Source of the DNA: Escherichia coli O127:H6 str. E2348/69
GTDB lineage: Bacteria; Pseudomonadota; Gammaproteobacteria; Enterobacterales; Enterobacteriaceae
Length of the DNA stretch: 64,000 bases
Assembly: GCF_000026545.1 (NCBI RefSeq)
Contig: NC_011601.1
Strand: one strand, 5' to 3'
Shown: positions 14,941 to 47,436 of the stretch, piece after piece
Layout: each line of letters begins with the position of its first letter
How positions within the stretch are numbered: the first letter of the stretch is position 1
The notes under the pieces: model-generated
What the model was told of the DNA's origin: nothing
Databases searched by the model: none
The model's input: the letters and a program-made list of their open reading frames with translations, nothing else
Translations under genes and position numbers: made by a program

Positions 14941-17763
14941 ATGACGGCAGAGTACATCAGGGACTGGCAACAACCGCGCCACGCAGTGGGGCGTGAAGGA
15001 ACGGGGATCCCCGCTCCTGAATCCGCGCTTTCCTCCTGGCTGGATGCCTACCGGGCAGAGAACGAGCACCGCCAGGAAATGGCTGATGCGGCGTTCTCCG
15101 CCACGCCGCTGGGCAACCTGATTAATAAAAGCCTGGACGCACAGGAAAAACAGGACAAAACCATCACACTGGCAGGAGACGCCAGAAAACAGGCACGCGG
15201 CGCGGTGGATGAAGCCATGGCCTCGCTGCGCCTGCTGCCGTCCTATCTGCGCGATCCGCTTATTCGCCACCTCTCCTTCCTGCGCAAAAAACAGGAAGCC
15301 GATCGTCAGAAAGGAAAAAACGCCAGGCAGGCAGAACGCTATGCGCGTGGGACCCTGCGCAAAATATTCGAACGTCTGGAGCGCACCGATCACCGCTGGC
15401 TGACACCGGGTTATCGCTCCCTTGCCGGACGCGAACGCCTGGACGATTTGCTTTACCTGCCGCAGCTCAACAAACACCAGATAAAGACGCTGGCAACCAT
15501 GACGGCGGCGATGTTCAGCAGCACCTTCGAAAAACTCTGCGATGGCTTTGGCGCGACCGATGGCGAGCTGACCATGGATGTAACCCTGAAGGCGTATCAG
15601 ATGCTGGCCCGCATGGCGTTACACCTGCACGCCATGCCTCCACATTATGACGCACTGACAACAGACAAAGACCGGAGGAACGAACCGGACACGGAGCTGC
15701 TGCCGGGCGCAATCCTTCGCCTGACCTGTGCGGAATGGTGGAAACGCAAACTGTGGCTGTTACGTTGCGAGTGGAGAGAAGAACAACTCCGCGCCGCCTG
15801 TCTGGTTTCCAGAAAAACATCGCCCTATCTGAGCCAGGACGCGTTAAGCGAGTTTCGCGCACAGCGCGAGAAAACACGCGATTTCCTGAAAAGTTTCATG
15901 CTGGAAAACGAAGACGGGTTCACGATTGATCTCGAGACAGTGTATTACGCGGGAGTAAGTAACCCGGTTCACCGTAAGGCAGAAATGATGGCCACCATGA
16001 AGGGACTGGAACTTCTGGCCGAAGCCCGTGGCGACAGAGCGGTGTTTCTGACTGTCACCTGCCCGTCAAAATACCACGCAACAACGGAGAACGGTCATCC
16101 GAACCCCAAATGGAACGGGGCCACCATGCGCGACTCCAGCGATTACCTGGTTAACACGTTTTTTGCGGCGGTCCGCAAAAAACTGAACCGCGACGGCCTG
16201 CGCTGGTATGGCATCCGCACGGTGGAGCCTCACCATGACGGCACCGTGCACTGGCATATGATGGTCTTTGCTCATCCGGAAGAAATCGACAGCATCGTGA
16301 CCATCACCCGCGATATTGCCATTCAGGAAGACCGCCACGAGCTGGGCAATGATATTACTCCGCGCTTTAAGGTGGAGTACGTCGACGGCACCAAAGGCAC
16401 GCCAACCAGCTACATCGCCACCTACATCGGAAAAAACCTGGACAGCCGCGCCGTGGATGGCATCGACCCGAAAACGGGCAAACCACGCGTTGACCACGAA
16501 ACCGGAAAATCAATGGCCGAGAGCGTGGAGCGCGCCATCGGTTGGGCACGCCTTCACCGGGTCCGCCAGTTCCAGTTCTTTGGCATCCCCTCCCGTCAGG
16601 TGTGGCGTGAACTCCGCCGCCTTGCCAGCCAGATGGCACGCAACCCGGAAGGCCCGCAACGGCTGAAGGATGACGCAATGGATGCGGTACTCGCTGCCGC
16701 TGATGCCGGATGTTTTGCCACCTACATAGAGAAACAGGGCGGTGTACTTGTTCCACGCAAAGACTACCTGATTCGCACCGCCTACGACCTCGCCGATGAG
16801 CTGAACGATTACGGCGAACAGAGTGTACAGATTTACGGGATCTGGTCACCACTCATCGGGGAATCCTCCCGTGTGTGCACGCACCCGGATAACTGGAAGC
16901 TGGTAAGACGTAAACCGGAACAGGAAGGCAGCGCCCACGAAAATGGTTTTGACCTTCAGGGCGGCCCTGCCGCCCCTTGGACTCGTGGCAATAACTGTCC
17001 CCGTGTACAGGAAACGGACAACAACGGGACAGAACAGCCGGAAGAACGGCCAGCACCGTGGCCGCAGCTCCCTGACGGCGTTGAAGTGAACGAATGGGTG
17101 CGCTCACTGAAACGGCACGAACGCCGGGCGCTGATGCGTTCGCTTCGTGACAAACAGGCAAAAAACAGCAGTGATGAAATGCAGAGCTGGACACAGAGCC
17201 GCAAACAGCAGCGGCCTTTGCCTGATAACCACGAATTACTCGCTAAAGAATGGCGGGAGTCTGCTGAATCTCTCGGCCTGCATATCGGTGAACAGCAGAT
17301 GCAGCACCTGTTACGGGGCGGCAGCCTGTACGTTGACGGCAGCATCATTGCACCGCAGGGATATGAAATTGTACGTAAACCGGATACCCGCCCGGACAGC
17401 CGAATCACGCAGCTCTGGCAACGCCTGAGCCGTAACCACGGCGTAAGCAGCACGGAGATCCGCCATAACCCGGTCGCCAGCTATCTGGAACAACTAGGGG
17501 CATCAGACCCTGAAGCCGCCGCACGCCTGGCATCCACACTTCAGCAAGACCAGAACACCATGAAAACACCCGTTACCGTACTTTCTGACATGCTGCGCGC
17601 CATCCGCGACGCAGAGCACGAACAGAGAATCAGTGAAACAACTGAACGCGCCCGCCGCAAAGCAGACCTGCTGCGGGGTGGCCTGACCAGTGGAAACAAA
17701 AAACAGACAAAAACGGGATTCACAAATCCCGTAAATGAGCAAAAAACGCGCCGCGATATATGA
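14941..17763 (+). CDS. A: replication initiation endonuclease, P2 gpA family (rolling-circle initiator)
   Basis: 940-aa ORF; HHDGTVHWHMMVF (HUH-type) and YIATYIGKN (catalytic Tyr) motifs; about 180 aa longer than P2 A. Confidence 0.85.
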   Translation: MTAEYIRDWQQPRHAVGREGTGIPAPESALSSWLDAYRAENEHRQEMADAAFSATPLGNLINKSLDAQEKQDKTITLAGDARKQARGAVDEAMASLRLLPSYLRDPLIRHLSFLRKKQEADRQKGKNARQAERYARGTLRKIFERLERTDHRWLTPGYRSLAGRERLDDLLYLPQLNKHQIKTLATMTAAMFSSTFEKLCDGFGATDGELTMDVTLKAYQMLARMALHLHAMPPHYDALTTDKDRRNEPDTELLPGAILRLTCAEWWKRKLWLLRCEWREEQLRAACLVSRKTSPYLSQDALSEFRAQREKTRDFLKSFMLENEDGFTIDLETVYYAGVSNPVHRKAEMMATMKGLELLAEARGDRAVFLTVTCPSKYHATTENGHPNPKWNGATMRDSSDYLVNTFFAAVRKKLNRDGLRWYGIRTVEPHHDGTVHWHMMVFAHPEEIDSIVTITRDIAIQEDRHELGNDITPRFKVEYVDGTKGTPTSYIATYIGKNLDSRAVDGIDPKTGKPRVDHETGKSMAESVERAIGWARLHRVRQFQFFGIPSRQVWRELRRLASQMARNPEGPQRLKDDAMDAVLAAADAGCFATYIEKQGGVLVPRKDYLIRTAYDLADELNDYGEQSVQIYGIWSPLIGESSRVCTHPDNWKLVRRKPEQEGSAHENGFDLQGGPAAPWTRGNNCPRVQETDNNGTEQPEERPAPWPQLPDGVEVNEWVRSLKRHERRALMRSLRDKQAKNSSDEMQSWTQSRKQQRPLPDNHELLAKEWRESAESLGLHIGEQQMQHLLRGGSLYVDGSIIAPQGYEIVRKPDTRPDSRITQLWQRLSRNHGVSSTEIRHNPVASYLEQLGASDPEAAARLASTLQQDQNTMKTPVTVLSDMLRAIRDAEHEQRISETTERARRKADLLRGGLTSGNKKQTKTGFTNPVNEQKTRRDI

Positions 17764-17839: not shown

Positions 17840-18799
17840 ATGAAAATTTGTATCGACGACGGCTCCACCAACATCAAGCTGGCATGGACTGAGAACGGCG
17901 AACACCGCAACGCCATCAGCCCGAACAGCTTCAAGTCGGAATGGTCTGCGCCGTTCGGTGGCACGCAGCCCGCGAACTACATGCTTGATGGCGTGCGCTA
18001 TGGTTTTGATCCGGTCAGCGATCGCTTTGTCCAGACGACCGACACGCAATACCAGTACAGCGATGTGAATGTCATTGCCATTCATCATGCGCTGGTCAAA
18101 TCAGGCATCACGCCACAGGAGGTGGATGTGGTTGTCACCCTGCCACTGAGCGAGTATTTCGACACAAACGCACAGCCGGACATGGCCAACATCAACCGCA
18201 AAAAAGCGAACGTTATGCGCCCGGTGGAGTACCAAAACGGCGAGGCATTCACTATCCGTAACGTGCGGGTTATGCCTGAATCCATTCCGGCTGGCTTTAA
18301 AGCACTGGCTGACATGAGTCCGTTTGAATCCCTGCTGATTGTGGATTTGGGCGGAACCACGCTGGATGTGGCAAAGGTTCAGGGGCAACTGGCAGGTATC
18401 AGCCAGGTGTTTTGCGATCCACACGTAGGCGTTTCTCTGATGGCCGATGCCGTGCTGTCGGTGATGGCCACCAACGGTATGCGCACCAGTCACCACATCG
18501 CCAATACCATTATCGAACATCGCCACGATGAAGCCTGGCTGCGCCAGCACATCCACAATGACGCGCATTACGCCAGCCTGATGGCAGTTATTCGTGAAAA
18601 GGAGGAAACACTGAAACAACGCGTGATCCGCGCGCTGGCGGTTTTTTCGGGTTACGGGCGGGTGATGGTTGTCGGTGGAGGGGCGGAGATTGTGGCACCC
18701 GCTATCCGCGAAGCCTGCGGAGTTAATGCGACTTTCATCGCGGACGGGGTGCCACAGTTTGCTCTGGTTAATGGGCTGTACGCAATGGACAAGGAGTAA
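17840..18799 (+). CDS. ParM/StbA-type actin-like segregation ATPase
   Basis: 319-aa ORF; N-terminus MKICIDDGSTNIKLAWTE and the segments YSDVNVIAIHHAL, VMPESIPAG, LLIVDLGGTTLD, VMVVGGGAE parallel plasmid R1 ParM (StbA) along the whole length. Confidence 0.8.
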   Translation: MKICIDDGSTNIKLAWTENGEHRNAISPNSFKSEWSAPFGGTQPANYMLDGVRYGFDPVSDRFVQTTDTQYQYSDVNVIAIHHALVKSGITPQEVDVVVTLPLSEYFDTNAQPDMANINRKKANVMRPVEYQNGEAFTIRNVRVMPESIPAGFKALADMSPFESLLIVDLGGTTLDVAKVQGQLAGISQVFCDPHVGVSLMADAVLSVMATNGMRTSHHIANTIIEHRHDEAWLRQHIHNDAHYASLMAVIREKEETLKQRVIRALAVFSGYGRVMVVGGGAEIVAPAIREACGVNATFIADGVPQFALVNGLYAMDKE

Positions 18800-18803
18800 A
18801 CCA

Positions 18804-19115
18804 ATGACGACTCCAACCAGACGGATAAGTTTCTATCTGAAGCCCACCGCCGTCAAGAACGAAGGAGAAGCATGCGCCTGGCTGGACAGCCTTACACCAG
18901 AAGCCCGCAAAAGCGGCCAACGCGTGGCTTTTCTGGCCGGGCTGGCACTTCTGAAAATGAATCCGGCAGAGGCTTACCGACTGGCTGCATGGGCTGATGA
19001 TGAGGTGTTATCAGTGACACAAACCAAGACAGAACGCCCCGCGTCACAGCCAGTATCAACCGCACAGATAACCAGTCAGATGGCCGGAAATATCCGGGCG
19101 TTATTTCCTGAATAA
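18804..19115 (+). CDS. ParR/StbB-like adaptor protein
   Basis: 103-aa product from MTTPTRRISFYLKP inside the listed 18669..19115 ORF; N-terminal region parallels R1 ParR (RRxIxFxLxP ... LDS ... AGLAL); follows the parM-like gene. Confidence 0.6.
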   Translation: MTTPTRRISFYLKPTAVKNEGEACAWLDSLTPEARKSGQRVAFLAGLALLKMNPAEAYRLAAWADDEVLSVTQTKTERPASQPVSTAQITSQMAGNIRALFPE

Positions 19116-19493
19116 CATCAGGGCGTATTCGCCCTGCCACCAATCCCATAACATAAAGAACGGGGTGCAAATCACTATACACCCCGTTCCAATACAAACC
19201 ATCAGAAGATCTACACATCTTTCTCAAATGGCCAAGTAATCGAGCTGGTTCAGGAATAAGCATGCTGCCAACACAAGTGAAGGAGATAAAACTGTAGAAC
19301 TGATCAATCGTTGGAAACAAGTATTGACAGTATGTTCGAGTAACCCAACTGGATAGATTTTATGCTGATTATCCATACAGTAAAAAAGTAAGGATACTCT
19401 TTGAATTACGCCAGCAAGAGTGGTAACATTAGTCAATGATTTTCATTAATGTAGTTACCAGCTTACACAAGCTGATGTTTTATTGGGGGTTTT

Positions 19494-20576
19494 ATGGTAA
19501 ACGTGAGGGAGGATGAACTTTTCAAACTCATCGAGCAAGGCATCAAAGGCAACGCAAATGCATTTACACTCCTATGCAGAAAGATGATTAACAACATCCG
19601 TAAAAATGATGAGGCTTTAGCTTCTAAGCTGGCTTCGTTAGTTGCTGAGGGAACAGTATTACGTGGGGCATCTAGTAAGGCTCCTATGCCTGTGGATGGA
19701 GACTCCAGACGAAACCTTTTGCAGGAAACATCTGTCAACGCAATTGTTGAAGAACCTGTATGGAATACGGATATCTCAAAGAAGCTGGAGTCAATTGTTA
19801 ACGAAAGAGAGAATGCGGTTTCTTTGTTCAAAGCTGGTCTTGAACCTGTGAAGACGGTTTTACTTTCTGGCCCGCCAGGCGTAGGCAAAACAATGTCCGC
19901 ACATTGGCTTGCTGCAAAGTTAAATTTACCTCTTTTAACATTGGATCTCTCATCTGTAATGAGTTCTCTTTTGGGAAAAACAGGTAATAATATTAAATCC
20001 GTTATGGATTATGCCAAAGAGAAACCATGTGTCCTTTTGCTTGATGAATTTGATGCTGTTGCAAAAAGACGTGATGATGACAGGGACGTTGGAGAATTAA
20101 AACGTTTAGTTACTGTACTCCTACAGACCATAGATGAGTGGCCAGCGACCTCGCTTCTTGTTGCTGCGACTAATCACCCTGATATCTTAGATCCGGCTGT
20201 TTGGCGTCGATTTGAGCACATCCTTAAATTTAATATGCCATCAGTAGAACTGATAGATAGATATTTAGTCAATCATAATATTGAACCTGAACTATCTAAA
20301 AAACTTGCACCATTATTAGATGGCATGTCCTTTGCCATCATTAACCGTATTTTGAATTTCTCCAAAAAGAATGAGGTACTTAGAAATATTCCATTTGAAA
20401 GCTCATTAATAGAAGCCGTAATTACGGAGAGGGTTTCATTGGATGAGTTTAGCGATAATGATCTCAATATAATTAAATATCATTTTGACGGTTTTTCAAA
20501 TAGGAAGATAGCTGAATTAGTTGGTGTTTCACATCCAACAATCGCGAATAAATTACAAAAGTGGGGGATTAAATGA
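19494..20576 (+). CDS. AAA+ ATPase with C-terminal HTH-like segment (candidate defence component A)
   Basis: 360-aa ORF; Walker A LLSGPPGVGKT, Walker B VLLLDEFDAV, sensor-1/Arg-finger ATNHPDILDPAVWRRF; C-terminal NRKIAELVGVSHPTIANKL; AT-rich codon usage. Confidence 0.8.
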   Translation: MVNVREDELFKLIEQGIKGNANAFTLLCRKMINNIRKNDEALASKLASLVAEGTVLRGASSKAPMPVDGDSRRNLLQETSVNAIVEEPVWNTDISKKLESIVNERENAVSLFKAGLEPVKTVLLSGPPGVGKTMSAHWLAAKLNLPLLTLDLSSVMSSLLGKTGNNIKSVMDYAKEKPCVLLLDEFDAVAKRRDDDRDVGELKRLVTVLLQTIDEWPATSLLVAATNHPDILDPAVWRRFEHILKFNMPSVELIDRYLVNHNIEPELSKKLAPLLDGMSFAIINRILNFSKKNEVLRNIPFESSLIEAVITERVSLDEFSDNDLNIIKYHFDGFSNRKIAELVGVSHPTIANKLQKWGIK

Positions 20577-22777
20577 TGGAAAGGAACTTACTTTTAGGTA
20601 ACGGTCATGTTCTGACAAAAAAGGAACCTTTGCCTAAAGGAAGGGATGGTAAGCGCTATCCCTATACTCTTGAAGAAGTAAGGGAGCATTTAAACCCAGA
20701 GATTGATACTTTACTCTCACGCTTTCGCAGTTTGGATGATGCGGCTAAGCCAAGGGGGGAGAGTGTATTCAATTTAACTTTACACCCAGCGTTTTTGGGT
20801 AAAAGCTACTTTCCGGAAGGATTGCTTAGAGCGACAGGTTTACGGGATGTCGGCAGCCGTCAGGTAATCATTCGCCCACGGAAAGCGGCACGTCAGTGCG
20901 ATCAGAATAAGGACTTAGTAACGGCGCAACTGTTTGTTAGCGGTGATGATGATGCCGTTATAAGATTTAAGGAAATTTTAAATTCCCCTACAGCTCCGAA
21001 GGGCGTACAAAAGGATTTGATCGAAATTGAAAGTGTTAGCTTTTTTGAAGGAAAAGAGAGAGCACGCAATTTTGAGCATGCGAAAAGTGATTTGATAAAA
21101 TTTGAAGTGGTTCTTCATGCTGGGGTTGAAGACGATGATATCGTTAAAGCCTATATTAGCTATGCGGCACAATATGATGTCTCTGTTGATTACAAAAGTA
21201 GAATCCAAGTTGGTGGGCTGACTTTCATCGTTGCACACGCGCGACCTGAAGATATGAAAAAAACACTCGATTTTTCATTAATCCGCGTTGTGCGGCCGAT
21301 GCCGTCTCTCAGGTGTACTCAGCCGAACATTGTCAGAAAGTTATCTAATATAGTTACACCGGAGCTCCCTAATTCTAAAGCTGTTCTTGAATCCGAACGT
21401 ATTGCCATTTTTGATGGTGGCTTGGGGACAGCTGACTTGAGTAATTGGGTTACGGAATACGTGTATCCAGACACCAAAGAAACAAGCGGATTATTATTGC
21501 AGCACGGTAATGAAGTGACATCCACTTTCTTATTCGGACGTGTCGAGGAAAATGCACCTTCTTTTAAAAGACCGTTTATGAATGTAGATCATTATAGAGT
21601 TCTTTCACCGACATCAGGTGACAATGGCAATTGGGATTTATTTGATGTCCTTAAGAAAATACAGTCCGTTCTTGATAGTGGTGACTATAAGTTCGCTAAT
21701 CTAAGTATTGGTCCTCATCTTCCAATTGGTGATGATGAGGTTCATGTATGGACTGCTGTTTTAGACCAAATCTGTGCTAAGCATGGGATATTACTTACTG
21801 TTGCTGTTGGGAATGATGGCAATGAGGACGGTGATGCAGCGAGAATACAACCTCCTTCCGATATGGTAAACGCGCTAGCGATTGGTGCTGCTGATCGTAG
21901 CGGTGAAAAATGGGGGCGGGCACCATATAGCTGTATTGGGCCAGGCAGAAGCCCCGGATTCGTTAAACCTGATGGTGTTATTTTTGGTGGAAGCGACGAC
22001 GAGCCTTTTTACACTTACAACCCTCTGCTTGGTTCTATAGTTGGAGTTCAAGGAACCAGTTATGCCTCTCCATTAGCATTGAGAACGGCCGCTGGAGTTG
22101 CGGCTCTATCAGGAACTCCATTGAACACCATTGCATTGAAAGCGTTGCTTGTTCATCATGCTGAAACATCAAGAAAATATTCGCGTGAACATATCGGTTG
22201 GGGACGGTTTAGTGAGGATCCTAACGTTTTAATCGATTGTCCAAATGATACTGCTACAGTAATTTACTATGGTTCATTAGCAAAAAATAAATATTTAAGG
22301 GCACCGATCCCATTCCCTGATGTTCCCTTTGACGAAGCATTTGAGCTTACCGCTACTTTATGCATTCAAACCCCAGTAGATCCTGAACATTCAGTAAACT
22401 ATACAAGGGCCGGTATGCAGGTAACTTTCCGCCCAAGATTCGGCCTTGACGATACCGATACAGATGATTTCTTTGGTCAAAAAAGCCAGTATAAGACTGA
22501 AAGGGAGTGTAGGAGTGAAGGTCATAAGTGGGAAACTTGTTTGCACAGAAGCAAAAAGTTCAGTGCTGATACATTATTAAGCGATCCAGTTTTTGATATA
22601 CGGTATCATGCCCGAGATTCTTCGCGCCATGTTAAGGGAGTTTCAGCCCCTGATATGCAATATGCGATGGTAATAAGCGTAAGGGTAAAAGACTTTGATT
22701 TATATAATGTTATTCGCCAGCGATATACAATTCTGAATCCTATTCAACTGCGCACACAAATTTCTCTCGACACGTAA
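20573..22777 (+). CDS. subtilisin-like S8 serine peptidase, large multidomain, no signal peptide (candidate defence component B)
   Basis: 734-aa ORF, ATGA-overlapped with the ATPase gene; S8 motifs in order: Asp IAIFDGGLG, His LLQHGNEV, Asn VAVGNDGNEDG, Ser GVQGTSYASPLAL; about 260-aa N-terminal and 200-aa C-terminal extra regions. Confidence 0.8.
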   Translation: MMERNLLLGNGHVLTKKEPLPKGRDGKRYPYTLEEVREHLNPEIDTLLSRFRSLDDAAKPRGESVFNLTLHPAFLGKSYFPEGLLRATGLRDVGSRQVIIRPRKAARQCDQNKDLVTAQLFVSGDDDAVIRFKEILNSPTAPKGVQKDLIEIESVSFFEGKERARNFEHAKSDLIKFEVVLHAGVEDDDIVKAYISYAAQYDVSVDYKSRIQVGGLTFIVAHARPEDMKKTLDFSLIRVVRPMPSLRCTQPNIVRKLSNIVTPELPNSKAVLESERIAIFDGGLGTADLSNWVTEYVYPDTKETSGLLLQHGNEVTSTFLFGRVEENAPSFKRPFMNVDHYRVLSPTSGDNGNWDLFDVLKKIQSVLDSGDYKFANLSIGPHLPIGDDEVHVWTAVLDQICAKHGILLTVAVGNDGNEDGDAARIQPPSDMVNALAIGAADRSGEKWGRAPYSCIGPGRSPGFVKPDGVIFGGSDDEPFYTYNPLLGSIVGVQGTSYASPLALRTAAGVAALSGTPLNTIALKALLVHHAETSRKYSREHIGWGRFSEDPNVLIDCPNDTATVIYYGSLAKNKYLRAPIPFPDVPFDEAFELTATLCIQTPVDPEHSVNYTRAGMQVTFRPRFGLDDTDTDDFFGQKSQYKTERECRSEGHKWETCLHRSKKFSADTLLSDPVFDIRYHARDSSRHVKGVSAPDMQYAMVISVRVKDFDLYNVIRQRYTILNPIQLRTQISLDT

Positions 22778-36128: not shown

Positions 36129-36150
36129 AAACGTTGGTTTGGGGGAAGGC
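36125..36150. repeat. candidate crossover site B (direct orientation)
   Basis: aaaacgttggtttgggggaagg at the start of cassette 2. Confidence 0.45.
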
Positions 36151-36615
36151 TCTGCACTGCCCGTTGGTGTGCCCGTTCCATGGCCCTCAGCCACGCCGCC
36201 AACGGGATGGCTGAAATGTAACGGCGCAGCATTTTCTTCTGAAAAGTACCCAAAACTGGCAAGGGCTTACCCCACCAATAAATTACCAGACTTACGCGGT
36301 GAATTTATCCGTGGCTGGGATGATGGGCGAGGAATTGATGCGGCACGCGCTTTATTGAGCATTCAAAACGGGATGTTGGAAAAACACCGCCATATTGTTG
36401 TAGCTAACGATGGATATGACACAAAGGATGAATGGGAGTTGGCCACGATTTTCAAAAAAACATATACGCAAGGCAGGGGGCTTGATGCCACAAATACAGG
36501 AGGGAGTTTGATTCCATCACCAACGCTTCATTCACGAGGAAGTATTGGTAACACAGGTGGTAGTGAAACCCGCCCCCGCAATATTGCATTTAACTATATC
36601 GTGAGGGCGGCTTAG
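36139..36615 (+). other. promoterless alternative tail-fibre C-terminal cassette 2 (direct orientation)
   Basis: The ORF begins exactly at the shared GEGSALPVGVPVPW block and ends with the shared PRNIAFNYIVRAA tail; central 70 aa differs from cassette 1. Confidence 0.7.
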
Positions 36616-36621
36616 TTATAT

Positions 36622-37233
36622 TCAACTGGCTGCTGCCAGTGGTATTTCCGGCAAGTTGATATCTGGTGCCATGTTTATATCCATTGCGTTCAGCGCGTCT
36701 ATATAATCCAGCACGGCATTAAGCCGGGTGGTTTCTGCCTGCGTCAACTTCCGCCCGGCCTGCAACTTCAACTGAATCAGACTTATGGAAGCCATTGCCG
36801 CATCAGCCAGTGACTGGCGCTTGGTTTCTGCCGCTTCTACTGCAGCACGATGTTGTGCCTCAGTATCTGTCACCCATTTTTCACCATCCCATTTATCGTA
36901 TGGTGTTAACGGGGCGATAGTGGTTGTATTTTTCGGGTAGTCACCCAGCGCCGTGATTTCTTCGGTGTTTCCCGTGTCAGTGCTATAGACGGTTTCACCA
37001 CGATGGTCTGGCGCATACTCCCATGAGCTTAAATTCTCCGAACGGCGGATAGCATAGCCCGCTTTATGTGCGCCCGGGGCATCTAAACAGGAATTTGCCG
37101 GAATACCGACACCCACAGCAAGATATTCAGTTGATTCGGAAATATATTCCCGTGTCTCACCATCATAGTTATAAACGACGATGTTTCCTGCCTGTACGGC
37201 AATAAGGTCATCATTTAATATCGCGTTATTCAT
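36622..37233 (-). CDS. tail fibre assembly chaperone (Tfa/gpG-like)
   Basis: 203-aa ORF immediately downstream of, and co-oriented with, cassette 3; phage Tfa-like N-terminus. Confidence 0.75.
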   Translation of the reverse strand: MNNAILNDDLIAVQAGNIVVYNYDGETREYISESTEYLAVGVGIPANSCLDAPGAHKAGYAIRRSENLSSWEYAPDHRGETVYSTDTGNTEEITALGDYPKNTTTIAPLTPYDKWDGEKWVTDTEAQHRAAVEAAETKRQSLADAAMASISLIQLKLQAGRKLTQAETTRLNAVLDYIDALNAMDINMAPDINLPEIPLAAAS

Positions 37234-37700
37234 TATGCGGTTCTCACAATATAATTGAAGGCAATATTGCGTGGGTGGGTTTCATTCCCCTCTGAGGATT
37301 CCGTTCTGTATTGACTGGTAAATCTACCGTTAATTGCACCTTGCCGGACGGCGTTATCTGTCGACAACAGACTATCCCCTCCTTTGTCATTTGGCACCAA
37401 CACCGTGTTATCCCACGCATCCCATGACCGAATATTATGATAATGACTTCCTGTTAACCACCCCTGCATGCTTAAGATGCCCCTTCCGGCATCCACCCCG
37501 CGCCCATCATCCCAGCCACGGATAAATTCACCGCGTAAATCCGGTAATTTATTGGTGGGGTAGGCCTTTGCCAGTTTTGGGTACATTTCAGAAGAAAATG
37601 CTGCACCGTTACATTTCAGCCACCCTGCTGGCGGTGTGGCTGAGGGCCACGGAACAGGTACACCAACGGGCAGTGCAGAGCCTTCCCCCAAACCAACGTT
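37233..37700 (-). other. alternative tail-fibre C-terminal cassette 3 (inverted orientation)
   Basis: Minus-strand ORF (listed 37233..37748) encodes the same GEGSALPVGVPVPW ... PRNIAFNYIVRTA frame with a distinct central segment. Confidence 0.7.
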
Positions 37701-37708
37701 TTCGTTTT
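37683..37708. repeat. candidate crossover site C (inverted orientation)
   Basis: Reverse complement reads aaaacgaaaacgttggtttgggggaa. Confidence 0.45.
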
Positions 37709-37762
37709 TATCCCTACCTATACCAACTCTGTATTTTTCACGAAACAAAGAGGATGTTTTTT

Positions 37763-38362
37763 ATGCAAATTGGCTATATTCGTGTGTCAACAAATGACCA
37801 GAACACGGATTTACAACGCAATGCACTGAACTGCGCAGGATGTGAACTGATTTTTGAAGATAAAATCAGCGGAACGAAATCAGCCAGACCGGGATTGAAA
37901 AAACTGCTCAGAACGCTATCAGAAGGAGATACGCTGGTTGTCTGGAAGCTGGACAGACTGGGCAGAAGTATGAAACACCTGATCACGCTTATTGAGGAAT
38001 TGCGGGAAAAAGGTGTTAATTTCCGTAGTCTGACGGACAGCATTGACACATCAACACCCATGGGGCGTTTCTTTTTTCACGTCATGGGGGCTTTAGCCGA
38101 AATGGAACGTGAATTAATTGTAGAGCGTACACTGGCCGGGCTGGCAGCAGCACGCGCACAAGGACGCATTGGCGGACGTCGCCCGAAGTTGACAAAAGAA
38201 CAACACGAGCAAATAGCGAGGCTGATTAAAAACGGTCATGACAGGAAACAACTGGCGATCATTTACGACATCGGCATATCGACGATTTATCGTTATCACC
38301 CTGTAGGCGATATACAGGCTGAAGAAACAACCAGGCAGACTCAGGAAAATAAAAACCGCTAA
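37763..38362 (+). CDS. serine recombinase DNA invertase (Gin/Cin/Pin/Hin family)
   Basis: 199-aa product MQIGYIRVSTNDQNTDLQRNAL ... LVVWKLDRLGRSMKHL ... GRIGGRRPKLT, near-colinear with Mu Gin; the listed ORF 37568..38362 includes a spurious upstream extension. Confidence 0.92.
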   Translation: MQIGYIRVSTNDQNTDLQRNALNCAGCELIFEDKISGTKSARPGLKKLLRTLSEGDTLVVWKLDRLGRSMKHLITLIEELREKGVNFRSLTDSIDTSTPMGRFFFHVMGALAEMERELIVERTLAGLAAARAQGRIGGRRPKLTKEQHEQIARLIKNGHDRKQLAIIYDIGISTIYRYHPVGDIQAEETTRQTQENKNR

Positions 38363-44131: not shown

Positions 44132-45232
44132 ATGACCGATACCACCATGCAATTGCTCAGTCAGGGCACAGACCCCGTGAAAATGCCGGATTTTGATATT
44201 CTCGCGGAGGGTAAAACGCTGTCAGGCGTGGCAGAGCGCCTGATGAGCCTGTCACTGACCGACAACCGGGGATTTGAGGCGGACCAGCTCACCATCACGC
44301 TGGATGATGCGGATGGTCAGTTGCAGCTACCGCCACGGGGCGCGCGCCTGACGGTTCTCATTGGCTGGAAAGGAGAACCGCTGACAGAAAAAGGCACTTA
44401 CATTGTTGATGAAATCGCTCACGAAGGACCGCCGGACAGGCTGACTGTTTCAGCCAGAAGCGCAGATTTTCGGGATGAATTTAACGTTAAACGTGAGGTG
44501 TCCTGGCATGATGTGACCGTTGAGCGCGTGGTATCTGCCATCGCTCATCGGTACGGTCTGAAACCGCAAATCAGCGAAATACTGATGGATATCGAAATCG
44601 ACCACGCCGACCAGACCGAAGAAAGCGACATGTCCTTCCTTACGCGCATGGCGGAAATGCTGGGCGCAATCACCACGGTAAAAAGCGGTAATCTGTTATT
44701 CATCATGCCAGGCGGTCGCGTGAACGCACTGGGCCAGCCGTTGCCATCGTTCGCCATCACACGCAGCAGCGGCGATCGCCATCAGTTCCGCATTGCTGAC
44801 CGCGAGGCGTATACGGGTGTACGCGCCTACTGGCTTGATCTTAATTACGGGAAAAAGAAAAAAGTCAGCGTGAAACGCCGCAAACCGAAAAAAGAGAAAA
44901 GCAGCAGCCGTGAAGGTGACTATATGGAAGGTGCGGAAGGCAACGTGTTTGTGTTACGCAAAACTTATCAGAACGAGCAGGCAGCAAGACGCGCAGCGGC
45001 GGCAAAATGGCAGCAGCTACAACGCGGAGCCGCATCATTTTCCATCACGCTGGCACGTGGACGAGCAGAACTCTACCCCGAAATGCATGGCACGGTAACA
45101 GGATTTAAAAGCGAGATTGATAATCAGGACTGGATCATTGCAAAAGCCGAGCACACCATTGATAACAGTGGCTTTACCACGCAGCTTGAGCTTGAAGCCA
45201 AAATCCCGGAATGGATAGCAGAAACAGAGTAA
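44132..45232 (+). CDS. D: tail protein D (late control D / baseplate hub family)
   Basis: 366-aa product from MTDTTMQLLSQG with gggaggga RBS, inside the listed 44000..45232 ORF; position before ogr. Confidence 0.75.
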   Translation: MTDTTMQLLSQGTDPVKMPDFDILAEGKTLSGVAERLMSLSLTDNRGFEADQLTITLDDADGQLQLPPRGARLTVLIGWKGEPLTEKGTYIVDEIAHEGPPDRLTVSARSADFRDEFNVKREVSWHDVTVERVVSAIAHRYGLKPQISEILMDIEIDHADQTEESDMSFLTRMAEMLGAITTVKSGNLLFIMPGGRVNALGQPLPSFAITRSSGDRHQFRIADREAYTGVRAYWLDLNYGKKKKVSVKRRKPKKEKSSSREGDYMEGAEGNVFVLRKTYQNEQAARRAAAAKWQQLQRGAASFSITLARGRAELYPEMHGTVTGFKSEIDNQDWIIAKAEHTIDNSGFTTQLELEAKIPEWIAETE

Positions 45233-45402
45233 ACAACTTAGATGCATTAGCCCTGACATTTGCTAACGCGCTTACAGCAAGAATCATAACCAATCTGACA
45301 GCCTACCCGGTGTCAAAATCAGAAGAGCCTTACATTAGAATATGTTAATTTGTAGCAAACAAATTTACACACAAATGATTACTGCTGAAATAGCCCCCAT
45401 AA

Positions 45403-46092
45403 ATGCCATGTCAAAGGATCCATGTTATGAATATGCAAATTTTTATCGCACCAGCAGCCACAGTTGCTGCAGTCTGCCTTGCTGCATATTTTGCTTTACG
45501 AAATGAACGTAAAAAGAAAGCACTTGAGATTAGAACAACTCAACTAGATCGAATATCTGAGCTAGTAAACCGAGCATCTACCAATTTGATGCAATATACA
45601 GGTACTCTTGCCTCTATACTGGAAGCGCACGCCAAAGATAATTATCTACCGAACAAAAAATTTGACATTAATGTAATTAGCAAATGGAAAGATTGCCTCG
45701 ATGAGAGTGAGGTCTGGGCGATTGATATACAGCAACTAAGAACATGTCAGCACAGTCTGGAGTTTCATCGTGAAAAAGAATGGGCTGAATGGAAAAAAAT
45801 AATTCCACCATTACTTGATAAAATTAACCAATTTTTTCTCATATCTAAGCCAGGGCAACCTGTTACGTTTATAAATGGCCAAAACAAAACAGCTGATGAA
45901 CTACTTGTTTTCTCAAGATATTTGAGAAAACAAACAGCAGAAATTGAATCAGTACGTCAGCTGTTACTTTCTCAAATGAGAGAGGAATTCATCGAGTTAA
46001 CTAGCTTTGAACCTGTCACAATGTTTAGCTTATTTAAATCAATAAAGAAAAATGTCATGCAATTTTTCTGTATCAGTGCTCTTAAAAATTGA
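45403..46092 (+). CDS. hypothetical membrane-anchored protein (AT-rich moron between D and ogr)
   Basis: 229-aa ORF; one N-terminal TM helix (IFIAPAATVAAVCLAAYFAL) followed by a Lys/Glu-rich soluble domain; strongly AT-rich codons; the start may be an internal Met (MNMQ). Confidence 0.55.
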   Translation: MPCQRIHVMNMQIFIAPAATVAAVCLAAYFALRNERKKKALEIRTTQLDRISELVNRASTNLMQYTGTLASILEAHAKDNYLPNKKFDINVISKWKDCLDESEVWAIDIQQLRTCQHSLEFHREKEWAEWKKIIPPLLDKINQFFLISKPGQPVTFINGQNKTADELLVFSRYLRKQTAEIESVRQLLLSQMREEFIELTSFEPVTMFSLFKSIKKNVMQFFCISALKN

Positions 46093-46241
46093 CGCTCTGT
46101 TGCAAGCAACCCCAGTGTTAAACTGGGGTTATTCTTGCTAAGAGACCTTTCTACGGCATCAGTAAACAAAACGAACTATCAGTTGGAGTCTGAGCAAGTT
46201 CAGCCTAAACTAGCGACAGCACTACGTTAAGGGAGGTCGCT

Positions 46242-46502
46242 ATGTTCCGTTGTCCGCTTTGTGGCGCATCTGCCCGTATCCGCACCAGTCGTCCGGAAAA
46301 TGATTCAAACACCGTGCGGCAAAAGTATTACCAGTGTAACAACCTGGAATGCGGCGTATGCTTCTCAACACTGGAAGCTTTCCATAAATTCACATCGAAA
46401 CACGCCTCCGGCATCCACTCTTCAGAAGGTATCCCGTGGCATGAGCTGCCAGCTTCACACAGGGGAAACAATCAGATGAGCTTGCCTTTACCTCAGAATT
46501 AA
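46242..46502 (+). CDS. ogr: late gene activator, Ogr/Delta zinc-finger family
   Basis: MFRCPLCGASARIRTSR ... YYQCNNLECGVCFSTLE matches the P2 Ogr CxxC-N-CxxxxC pattern. Confidence 0.85.
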   Translation: MFRCPLCGASARIRTSRPENDSNTVRQKYYQCNNLECGVCFSTLEAFHKFTSKHASGIHSSEGIPWHELPASHRGNNQMSLPLPQN

Positions 46503-46562
46503 CAGGCAGAATTGCCGGAGTAACAAAAACGCGATAGATTACGCGCGGGTGCCTTTCGGCTG

Positions 46563-46775
46563 ATGGTCGGAGGGAATACCCGAAGGCCAGATGTGGAAAG
46601 GCCCCGGAAAACATCTCTGTTTAACCGAGGCCCTAACCGCATTACCTTGACAAGTGAAAGGTTAGCGCCTCTCCGGAAAAGGAGCAAGTGCTATGTCGCA
46701 AAAATCGCTTACGGCCATCACGTTCTGCGTGACGGCAATCCTCATCATCTGGATGTTGCACGGTTCGCTGTGTGA
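46563..46775 (+). CDS. mok-like overlapping leader reading frame of the hok-type locus
   Basis: 70-aa ORF overlapping the hok-like gene in another frame, as in hok/mok/sok loci. Confidence 0.4.
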   Translation: MVGGNTRRPDVERPRKTSLFNRGPNRITLTSERLAPLRKRSKCYVAKIAYGHHVLRDGNPHHLDVARFAV

Positions 46776-46833
46776 AATACGGATGAGCTTCTGGGGAGCG
46801 GAGTTTGCGGCGTTCTTACAGTGTAAGCAGTAA
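46693..46833 (+). CDS. Hok/Gef-family type I toxin (small membrane protein)
   Basis: 46-aa ORF MSQKSLTAITFCVTAILIIWMLHGSLCEIRMSFWGAEFAAFLQCKQ: one TM helix, then the Hok-family SLCEIR and AAF motifs; ggag RBS upstream; not in the ORF track (under 60 aa). Confidence 0.7.
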   Translation: MSQKSLTAITFCVTAILIIWMLHGSLCEIRMSFWGAEFAAFLQCKQ

Positions 46834-46954: not shown

Positions 46955-47094
46955 GGTGTCCTCACCGACTTGAAACAGTGATCAGACTATAAGACAAAGC
47001 CCACAATGTAGCGGGCTTACTCCCCTCCCCCCACTAAATGTGGACGCATCGTGGAACGAAGAGATATAAAACATTATAAATCAATTAGTTATTG

Positions 47095-47119
47095 AAAGAA
47101 AAAAGGCCGCAGAGCGGCC
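47095..47119. repeat. attR core (direct repeat) overlapping the ihfA terminator
   Basis: Same 25-mer as at 10636..10660; on the minus strand it gives the ggccgctctgcggcc hairpin plus T-tract just downstream of ihfA. Confidence 0.85.
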
Positions 47120-47136
47120 TTTTTAGTTAGATCAGA

Positions 47137-47436
47137 TTACTCGTCTTTGGGCGAAGCGTTTTCGACCCGGCTTTTTAACTTCTGCCCGGGTCTGAAGGTC
47201 ACCACGCGCCGTGCTGTAATGGGAATATCCTCGCCCGTTTTCGGGTTACGTCCCGGGCGTTGATTCTTATCACGCAGATCGAAGTTACCAAAACCAGAGA
47301 GTTTCACCTGTTCGCCGTTTTCCAGAGCGCGACGGATCTCTTCGAAAAACAGTTCAACCAGTTCTTTGGCATCCCGCTTGCTAAGCCCAAGCTTATCAAA
47401 CAGATATTCTGACATTTCAGCTTTTGTAAGCGCCAT
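47137..47436 (-). CDS. ihfA: integration host factor alpha subunit
   Basis: 99-aa [41 protein letters not shown]... recognised as IHF-alpha. Confidence 0.95.

Follow-up and report, generated by a model that had tools for sequence, protein, structure and literature searches.

A horizontally acquired single-gene cassette with probable fun(Z)-type boundaries between genes D and ogr of an Escherichia coli P2-like prophage

P2-like prophages are known to carry accessory hotspots and morons, and inverted repeats have been described around one of their accessory genes, fun(Z). The subject of the present study is an AT-rich segment located between the tail gene D and the late activator gene ogr of such a prophage, in a stretch of 64,000 nucleotides from Escherichia coli O127:H6 str. 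E2348/69 (contig NC_011601.1); this whole stretch is called the window below. The segment (45233-46241) contains one gene, termed here the cargo gene, which belongs to a family that is uncharacterised within these known classes of elements. The best explanation of our data is that the segment constitutes a self-contained, horizontally acquired single-gene cassette of the fun(Z)-type boundary class. The cargo gene encodes a protein of 221 amino acids (aa) with one predicted membrane anchor, for which we see an even chance of a function in anti-phage defence of some kind.

The distribution of the cargo gene among E. coli genomes strongly supports its horizontal acquisition, as proposed in an earlier note that was made by reading the window. 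Among 5,426 complete genomes, the 3′ end of D is present in 1,137, and a 3.9-kb query reaching from the sheath gene to hok matches 1,645. The cargo gene is found in only 56 of them (57 by a second count), which corresponds to ∼1% of the complete genomes and to 56-57 of the ∼1,650 genomes bearing the phage backbone. We then inspected 36 evenly spaced hits having both D and ogr: the junction was empty in 22 and occupied by other inserts of 1.3-2.0 kb in 14. In the empty alleles L011 and L013, D and ogr are separated by a short spacer (Table 1), in agreement with the statement that the two genes are normally adjacent; in phage P2 itself, the spacer measures 81 nt and the annotated ogr promoter lies inside it. 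At least 11 other cargo types are documented at this site (Table 1), and every insert is AT-rich (GC 0.33-0.42). Related prophages thus carry different genes at the D/ogr junction or none at all, and the open reading frame (ORF) is clearly not a conserved component of P2-like phages at this position. Moreover, two unrelated elements, a lambdoid prophage of Kluyvera and an integrase island, contain the same gene together with its upstream element. The base composition is in accordance with this origin: the block is AT-rich, as the earlier note had seen, and its GC amounts to 0.36-0.39 over 45250-46150 versus 0.52-0.56 in D and the tail genes, with ∼0.50 in ogr, and the entire D-ogr spacer of 1,009 bp has a GC of 0.38, a clear deviation from the backbone. 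By position and base composition, the cargo gene is a moron, located between genes that are adjacent in relatives, and it is dispensable.

The flanks of the gene had also been described as AT-rich. This holds true, but the conserved boundary elements contained in them, which are those of the P2 fun(Z) inverted repeats, had been overlooked. Using a leave-one-out nhmmer profile, the left element (45234-45323) obtains 43.3 bits (E 1.4e-12) and is the sole match in the window. The right element is a remnant of 33-49 nt, detected at 46167-46199 with a profile that excluded the window (20.5 bits, E 1.5e-5). Every occupied D/ogr allele, whatever its cargo and the orientation of this cargo, opens after the D stop codon with RCAACTTAGA, followed by ∼90 conserved nt. 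Most occupied alleles end with the right element, ...CAAAGCGGACTGTCAG...CAGTTGGAGTCTGAGC.AGTACAACTTAGA/ATAG.GGCAGCAC, after which comes the ogr ribosome-binding site; this end is visibly degenerate in L021 and L022. The 9-10-bp sequence CAACTTAGA is present at both cassette ends and only once in the empty allele, the right copy of the window being degenerate. By alignment inspection, the flanking elements are ∼60-75% identical between cargo types versus ∼95-97% for D and ogr, indicating that the flanks diverge with the cargo and not with the phage backbone.

The two elements are related to each other in inverted orientation. Local alignment of the left end with the reverse complement of the right end gave a z value of 9.5 in L014 and of ∼3.5 in L015 and L018, which have full and significant pairs; the value for the window is 0.8, which is not significant. 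On the opposite strand, the left element of L003 is matched by the right-element profile as well (21.5 bits), indicating that the right element approximates the reverse complement of the left one. For the Kluyvera lambdoid copy of the cargo gene, the left element reaches 59 bits (leave-one-out) and a weak right element is found 1.7 kb downstream (12.5 bits, E 0.005), so that the gene appears to travel with its boundaries. A structured RNA was considered for the left element and rejected: RNAalifold yielded -1.4 and -1.8 kcal/mol on the two strands with essentially no covariation. Rfam gave no match at this element, and we favour a DNA-level element as the probable nature of the left boundary. 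The right element carries a promoter-like TTGGAG-N17-TAGAAT just upstream of ogr, which in the window reads TTGGAG (46183-46188), a 17-nt spacer and TAAACT (46206-46211). It would replace the ogr promoter split by the insertion; the annotated ogr promoter of P2 lies at the equivalent place.

Further copies of the boundaries were looked for with a degenerate-pattern scan followed by nhmmer, blastn searches of phage genomes not being sensitive enough for this element. The scan, made with a degenerate 18-mer of the element core, gave matches in 96 IMG/VR stretches, from which 80 loci were taken; ∼49 of these (among L042-L119) match the 97-column profile nearly over its full length (38-91 bits). 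Only seven of them have the D/ogr context. In most of the others with identifiable flanks, the element lies between the tail-fibre genes H/G and the sheath gene FI, i.e. in the classical Z/fun hotspot, with an FI 40-47% identical to that of the window. A few elements adjoin other genes, namely integrases, a metalloprotease of an immunity region, a UmuD-like gene or, in other prophages, a tail-fibre gene. An inverted partial copy is present 1-6 kb downstream in many loci and, in the P2-type loci having one, ∼235 nt ahead of FI. In P2 (NC_001895), which was kept outside the profile, the left element stands directly after the G stop codon (15274-15362; 38.8 bits, E 1e-11) and the inverted copy ahead of the PF promoter region (17428-17494; 16.5 bits, E 9e-5), and the two enclose fun(Z). 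Inverted repeats around fun, together with a proposed site-specific exchange, are attributed to Nilsson et al. 2004 in the citing article (PMC8987985). What we observe here is that different cargos, located at different sites, have their flanks in common. The repeats were thus already known for Z/fun; as far as we checked, our analysis adds a second hotspot (D/ogr), other prophage positions and a lambdoid prophage in which they accompany the cargo gene.

The cassettes delimited by these elements carry highly diverse cargo, often defence genes. From the 37 IMG/VR loci with definable cassettes we obtained 65 cargo ORFs falling into 47 clusters, and nine of 20 representative cargo proteins match PADLOC at E ≤ 1e-6. 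The matches comprise SduA/Shedu (775 bits), AbiGi, PD-T7-1, an Aga nuclease, PDC-S31 and PDC-S33, as well as an effector of the PDC-M68A/HNH type and a protein in which one domain is Lamassu/Hachiman-like. Together with P2 fun(Z), which blocks T5 and has the same boundaries, these nine proteins support an association of the cassette class with defence.

The cargo gene is a real gene and not a chance ORF. The earlier note had reported an ORF of 229 aa; this is indeed the length of the mechanical ORF (45403-46092, plus strand), but the likely product has 221 aa and starts eight codons later, at the ATG at 45427. This start is preceded by an AAGGA ribosome-binding site (45414-45418) and is the RefSeq start of WP_001057121.1. 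Comparison with the 74%-identical Kluyvera gene gave a dS of 0.65, a dN of 0.16 and a dN/dS of 0.25, which indicates purifying selection on a real protein. The Kluyvera copies share the conserved upstream region 45330-45395, in which GAATATGTTAATTTGT is invariant. A strict consensus promoter scan did not call the TTTACA-N16-TGAAAT candidate promoter listed in Table 1. At the other end, the terminator-like hairpin starts 16 nt past the stop codon. With these candidate signals, the gene may possess its own promoter and terminator for expression from the repressed prophage.

The protein (WP_001057121.1 / UniProt A0A705JQF0) is a member of an uncharacterised family of the Enterobacterales, as shown by full-length matches and shared motifs. 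Seven clusters were found among 5.8 billion proteins at word-index sensitivity, and a HMMER profile scan of 1.84 billion representatives retrieved 23 representative relatives, 17 of them at E ≤ 1e-10. The members have ∼215-235 aa, are all annotated as 'hypothetical' or 'uncharacterized' and include full-length homologues down to ∼19% identity; those with a named source belong to Escherichia, Salmonella, Kluyvera, Citrobacter, Yersinia, Pantoea and Erwinia. In an 18-sequence alignment, H114 and W122 are invariant and P9, A20, L24, K30, K31 and F113 nearly so; the family motifs are TP..T...VWLAA.F.LRNE..KK.LEI, L.FHR...W and FF(M/L)I(T/S).PG.

A single N-terminal transmembrane (TM) helix had been announced, and this is well borne out: the 19-residue Kyte-Doolittle mean is 2.1 at residues 5-23 and does not exceed 0.93 in any other segment. 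The description of the soluble domain as Lys/Glu-rich applies only mildly (K 8.6%, E 7.7%; 30 K+R versus 25 D+E in the soluble part). In the predicted architecture, the TM helix (∼5-24) leads into RNERKKK, a juxtamembrane motif that is conserved; the four-helix bundle occupies residues ∼25-192, and a helix at 199-219 forms the C-terminus. Throughout the family, the residues ahead of the hydrophobic segment carry a net charge of 0 to -2 and those behind it one of +1 to +4. According to the positive-inside rule, the short N-terminus would lie outside and the bundle, hence the bulk of the protein, is predicted to be cytoplasmic. A first AlphaFold2 run, given five close sequences, reached a pLDDT of only 62 and was replaced by a run with the 18-sequence alignment, which yielded a confident model of the N-terminal TM helix and the four-helix bundle (pLDDT 87.4, pTM 0.73). 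In this model, one long helix (4-71) spans the membrane and continues as the first helix of the bundle, helices 81-93, 101-114, 116-136 and 156-192 complete the antiparallel bundle, short strands occupy 78-80 and 153-155, and the final helix 199-219 has lower confidence. The order of the secondary-structure elements, from which we deduced this rather than from coordinates, would bring the residues conserved best, R25-N26-E27, K30-K31, the F113-H114-R115 turn and W122, to the membrane-proximal end of the bundle, beside the C-terminal helix.

Searches of the reference collections returned no known family. Pfam gave nothing below E 0.003 for the protein and all 18 aligned members, PHROGs assigned 0 families to the protein and only noise to 10 relatives, and NCBIfam gave noise only. 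In PADLOC-DB v2.0.0, which covers catalogues up to 2023, the best match was REase_II at E 0.024 over 33 residues, which is noise, and ten diverse family members obtained nothing better than E 0.006. A sequence search of the PDB with the protein and its profile matched no solved structure, the best hit, Cog7 (E 0.015), being judged a chance match. With Foldseek, family members were recovered at TM-scores of 0.72-0.87 and the other fold similarity was generic. A tblastn search of 50,697 phage genomes including P2 (E ≤ 1) found the protein only in Escherichia phage 520873, and it revealed no sequence homology to the P2 exclusion proteins Fun(Z), Tin and Old. We also considered a HEPN domain and rejected it: H114 is followed by R115, there is no Arg 4-6 residues ahead of it (the nearest, R105, lies nine upstream), R25-N26-E27 leads to K30/K31 and not to a His, and there is no Pfam HEPN match.

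The family is rare and restricted to Enterobacterales, and nearly all of its locations are prophages, integrative conjugative elements, plasmids or integrase islands. In addition to the P2-like D/ogr site, we examined nine settings of its members (Table 1). A known or defence-associated gene is located at most three genes away in six of the nine, the exceptions being the lambdoid prophage, the plasmid and a chromosomal locus. For example, on an integrative conjugative element, a SEFIR/TIR gene accompanies the member P0029 (L007), and a DUF4238 protein, the type encoded next to P0034, has been shown by experiment to protect against T7 (PMC9122126). This company is suggestive of an anti-phage role, as an association. 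A 78%-identical copy, found in the Kluyvera lambdoid prophage and in the integrase island, shares ∼100-140 nt of upstream sequence with the window. A conserved partner gene was sought and rejected, both the upstream and the downstream neighbours being different in every setting; the gene therefore acts singly or with host factors.

The earlier note had thought of superinfection exclusion or abortive infection, and this suggestion is now better backed, since both the defence-gene association of the family and the defence-rich type of cassette speak for it. In such a role, the protein would be expressed from the prophage in the lysogen, tethered to the inner membrane by its N-terminal helix with the elongated four-helix bundle in the cytoplasm, and would act at the cytoplasmic face of this membrane, shielding the lysogen against other phages. 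It might interfere with genome entry (superinfection exclusion) or might sense an infection cue and compromise the membrane (abortive infection); our estimate for defence is split roughly evenly between the two, which the data do not separate. Several observations weigh against a defence function. Guilt by association is weak for a single gene. One member (L027) is located in an ordinary chromosomal neighbourhood and another (L008) on a plasmid directly after parAB. Hotspots hold non-defence cargo too, such as partition systems and toxins (PMC9122126), and at D/ogr there are a ParA-family and a YecA-like gene. PADLOC gave only weak PsyrT and PDC-M28B matches for ten D/ogr cargos. The promoter candidate of the cargo gene is only a moderate match, and a literature search by accession and by E2348/69 prophage names found no paper mentioning the protein. 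Moreover, the D/ogr protein annotated as GmrSD in RefSeq had no PADLOC match.

The most serious competitor, which we nevertheless judge rather unlikely, is a lysogenic-conversion or host-fitness factor, e.g. a membrane-tethered adaptor that would sequester or modulate a host protein and act in this way on envelope stress, cell division, signalling or virulence regulation. Generic four-helix bundles are used by many signalling and adaptor proteins, and the homologue among ordinary chromosomal genes as well as the non-defence cargo of hotspots just mentioned would suit such a factor. However, the near confinement of the family to mobile elements, usually beside defence genes, and its patchy presence in 1% of E. 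coli genomes speak against it. An accessory of the phage itself, expressed with the late operon and either neutralising a membrane-associated host defence or tuning lysis or entry, appears improbable. D, the cargo gene and ogr all have the same orientation, which permits late read-through, and a few anti-defence genes do occur in P2-like phages. However, such genes are present in only 28 of 1,511 P2-like phages (both statements from bioRxiv 10.64898/2026.02.27.708500), the cargo gene also resides on elements lacking a lytic cycle (plasmids, integrative conjugative elements and islands), and it apparently has its own conserved upstream region and terminator-like hairpin.

It is very improbable that the protein serves a bacteriocin module, be it in immunity or as an accessory. 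This idea comes from L003 and L004, where the gene lies ∼700 nt from a PF01024 colicin-domain gene. In this Kluyvera lambdoid prophage, a 408-aa protein with a pore-forming colicin domain is encoded just upstream of the homologous cassette, in the nin region, and a 100-aa gene on the opposite strand beside it is a candidate immunity gene (both within L003/L004 6077-7652). The colicin gene would thus have an immunity gene of its own; moreover, the sequence common with the window begins past the colicin module (L003 7856), and no colicin gene is found beside the family in any other setting. Finally, a spurious or decaying ORF in AT-rich junk, to which the lack of a known domain, the truncation in phage 520873 and the IS1 interruption in two strains could point, is effectively excluded by the dN/dS of 0.25, the distant full-length homologues (to 19% identity) with invariant residues and the confident structure prediction. 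The two disruptions are as follows: IS1A interrupts the cargo region in E. coli AR_0128 and AR_0118, and the cargo gene is truncated or frameshifted in the deposited genome of phage 520873 (L002 5171-5569), in which D is split into three CDSs too, so that sequence quality may explain the truncation.

A defence function thus keeps the even chance stated above, and the cargo gene is a clean, testable candidate for one-gene membrane-level defence. If it is anti-phage, its 221-aa product would make up a compact defence system encoded by one gene. The architecture, predicted with confidence, is unusual in that one membrane anchor is combined with a four-helix bundle in the cytoplasm and no enzymatic domain is present; it would point to membrane-level sensing or exclusion, which could be dissected with a few point mutants of H114, W122 and K30/K31. 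A bolder idea, possible and on balance doubtful, is that the protein founds a new single-gene family of anti-phage proteins tethered to the inner membrane and, at the same time, that the ∼90-nt repeats form an integron-like cassette system, mobilised in trans, that shuttles defence genes. If so, Shedu, AbiG, PD-T7-1, GmrSD, fun(Z) and the cargo gene would be shuttled among two or more sites of P2-like phages, several further positions in prophages, lambdoid prophages and genomic islands. The ∼90-nt profile also offers a sequence handle for cargo cassettes in prophages irrespective of the anchor genes, and the wider distribution of the repeats reopens the site-specific-exchange proposal of 2004, with many more examples for a recombinase hunt.

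Table 1. Features of the cassette in the window, settings of the family and alleles of the D/ogr junction
Feature or locus	Position in the window	Strand	Basis or description
Tail gene D (late control D / VgrG-like), left backbone gene	44132..45232	+	PHROG 52 tail protein, E 1.7e-164; WP_000132806.1
Left cassette-boundary element, ∼92 nt	45234..45325	+	Leave-one-out nhmmer profile; begins CAACTTAGA (45234-45242)
Candidate sigma-70 promoter of the cargo gene	45364..45391	+	TTTACA (45364-45369), 16-nt spacer, TGAAAT (45386-45391); proposed from reading the sequence
Cargo gene, 221 aa	45427..46092	+	RefSeq CDS WP_001057121.1, ribosome-binding site, family alignment, AlphaFold2, hydropathy
Terminator-like hairpin	46108..46130	+	AACCCCAGT-GTTAA-ACTGGGGTT, then ATTCTT; consensus match only, weak T-tract
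Right cassette-boundary element, truncated	46167..46215	+	CAAAACGAACTATCAGTTGGAGTCTGAGCAAGT...; matched by a right-element profile that leaves out the window
ogr (Ogr/Delta zinc-finger late activator), right backbone gene	46242..46502	+	PHROG 603, E 4e-15; WP_000488101.1
L003, L004			Kluyvera lambdoid prophage, 74%-identical copy between replication genes and Q antiterminator (nin region), beside colicin-like gene
L005			Same Kluyvera copy in integrase island, after retron-type reverse transcriptase, TIR-domain gene, integrase and 1,207-aa helicase
L006, L007			P0029, cargo of integrative conjugative element with ParA, DnaB, TraR and TopoIII genes; DUF4145 or SEFIR/TIR gene a few genes off
L008			P0031, Rep3 plasmid, directly after parAB
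L009, L010			P0034, between DUF4238 gene and DUF4145 gene
L023			P0009, beside integrase fragment and SNIPE/T5orf172 gene
L024			P0010, 0.8 kb from OLD-TOPRIM ATPase and UvrD helicase (Gabija-like pair)
L025			P0013, directly after 1,292-aa nSTAND NTPase, integrative conjugative element
L027			P0017, ordinary chromosomal neighbourhood
L011, L013			Empty D/ogr alleles, 40-42 nt spacer
L012			D/ogr cargo: DUF3800 protein
L014			D/ogr cargo: YecA-family protein
L015			D/ogr cargo: GmrSD
L016			D/ogr cargo: 384-aa hypothetical
L017			D/ogr cargo: 500-aa PIN-domain protein
L018			D/ogr cargo: ComF-family phosphoribosyltransferase and 185-aa partner
L019			D/ogr cargo: ParA-family protein
L020			D/ogr cargo: 340-aa hypothetical
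L021			D/ogr cargo: pair of hypotheticals
L022			D/ogr cargo: 487-aa hypothetical

In RefSeq, the genes of the region are ordered as tape measure, gpE, tail protein, tube and sheath on the minus strand, followed by D, a hypothetical protein, Ogr/Delta and Hok/Gef on the plus strand, beyond which come ihfA and pheT. The nearest sequenced phage is phage 520873 (Xuanwuvirus, Peduoviridae; 94% identity). This order and this closest phage show that the prophage, which is P88-like and of the P2 type, is integrated beside ihfA and has the D-ogr block close to its right end. Directly 3′ of ogr, the prophage ends with a hok/sok-type type I toxin-antitoxin locus (46547-46706 and 46693-46833, both on the plus strand), with a 46-aa Hok/Gef ORF and a Rfam sok match of 48.4 bits (E 3e-9) that lies under the gathering score of 59. 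This locus is kept in every related prophage examined, annotated as Hok/Gef or, in phage 520873, as 'MokW-like'. Near-identical D-ogr-hok right ends adjoin ihfA/pheT (the window, L012, L015, L016), serS (L013), tRNA-Leu (L014) or the T6SS-associated tagO/flk region (L011), indicating that this phage group uses several integration sites. At the prophage-chromosome junction of the window, directly downstream of ihfA, Rfam matches the enterobacterial sRNA STnc540 (47051-47195, minus strand; 41.3 bits, gathering score 38).

Elsewhere in the same prophage, the classical gpA-gpQ hotspot (17840-22777, plus strand) contains the defence pair IetA (19494-20576, 298 bits) and IetS (20573-22777, 138 bits), with an unrecognised 319-aa ORF upstream (17840-18799); the prophage therefore has at least one known defence system besides the D/ogr cargo, a point in favour of a defence role of the latter. 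The tail-fibre region (36139-38362) resembles an invertible segment, in which G on the plus strand is followed by the minus-strand ORFs 36622-37233 and 37233-37748 and by a serine recombinase/invertase (37568-38362) matching XisF/Mpi-type models. Compared with P2, the FI-FII-E-T-U block is on the strand opposite to H/G and D.

The cargo protein and its cassette can be compared with several known systems. The 4HB_MCP, NarX/NarQ and QseE sensors have a generic four-helix-bundle fold likeness to the cargo protein, with no Pfam match. However, the 4HB_MCP and NarX-type sensor domains are periplasmic and lie between two TM helices, whereas the cargo protein has a single hydrophobic segment and is predicted to be cytoplasmic. 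HK97 gp15, T4 Imm and P22 SieA are single-gene membrane-anchored superinfection-exclusion proteins, and proteins of this type are small, prophage-encoded, inner-membrane products of morons expressed in the lysogen. No sequence or fold relation was detected between these three and the cargo protein.

At the level of the locus, the gpA-gpQ (old/tin) and Z/fun defence hotspots of P2-like prophages have been described by Rousset et al. 2022 (PMC9122126) and Vassallo et al. 2022 (PMC9519451), and a large share of the small systems they contain are anti-phage (PMC9122126, PMC9519451). Like D/ogr, each is a variable locus between anchor genes with many alternative small systems; D/ogr is distinct from both. 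Besides these two, a preprint of 2024 refers to a third hotspot of P2-like prophages, 'between a tail protein and CI', and one of 2026 to minor hotspots 'within the late genes' (bioRxiv 10.64898/2026.02.27.708500), so the D/ogr site seems to be barely described so far. The closest parallel is the fun(Z) cassette of P2. The sites differ, fun(Z) being at G/FI and the cargo of the window at D/ogr in a P88-like lineage with an inverted FI-U block, and Fun(Z), a protein of 528 aa encoded on the opposite strand, is unrelated to the 221-aa protein. However, fun(Z), annotated in P2 as a lysogenic-conversion gene blocking T5, is likewise an AT-rich non-essential cargo that interrupts a series of conserved late genes in a P2-like phage. 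The ∼90-nt left element is common to both cassettes; the inverted right copy is full in P2, and in the window a truncated remnant probably represents it.

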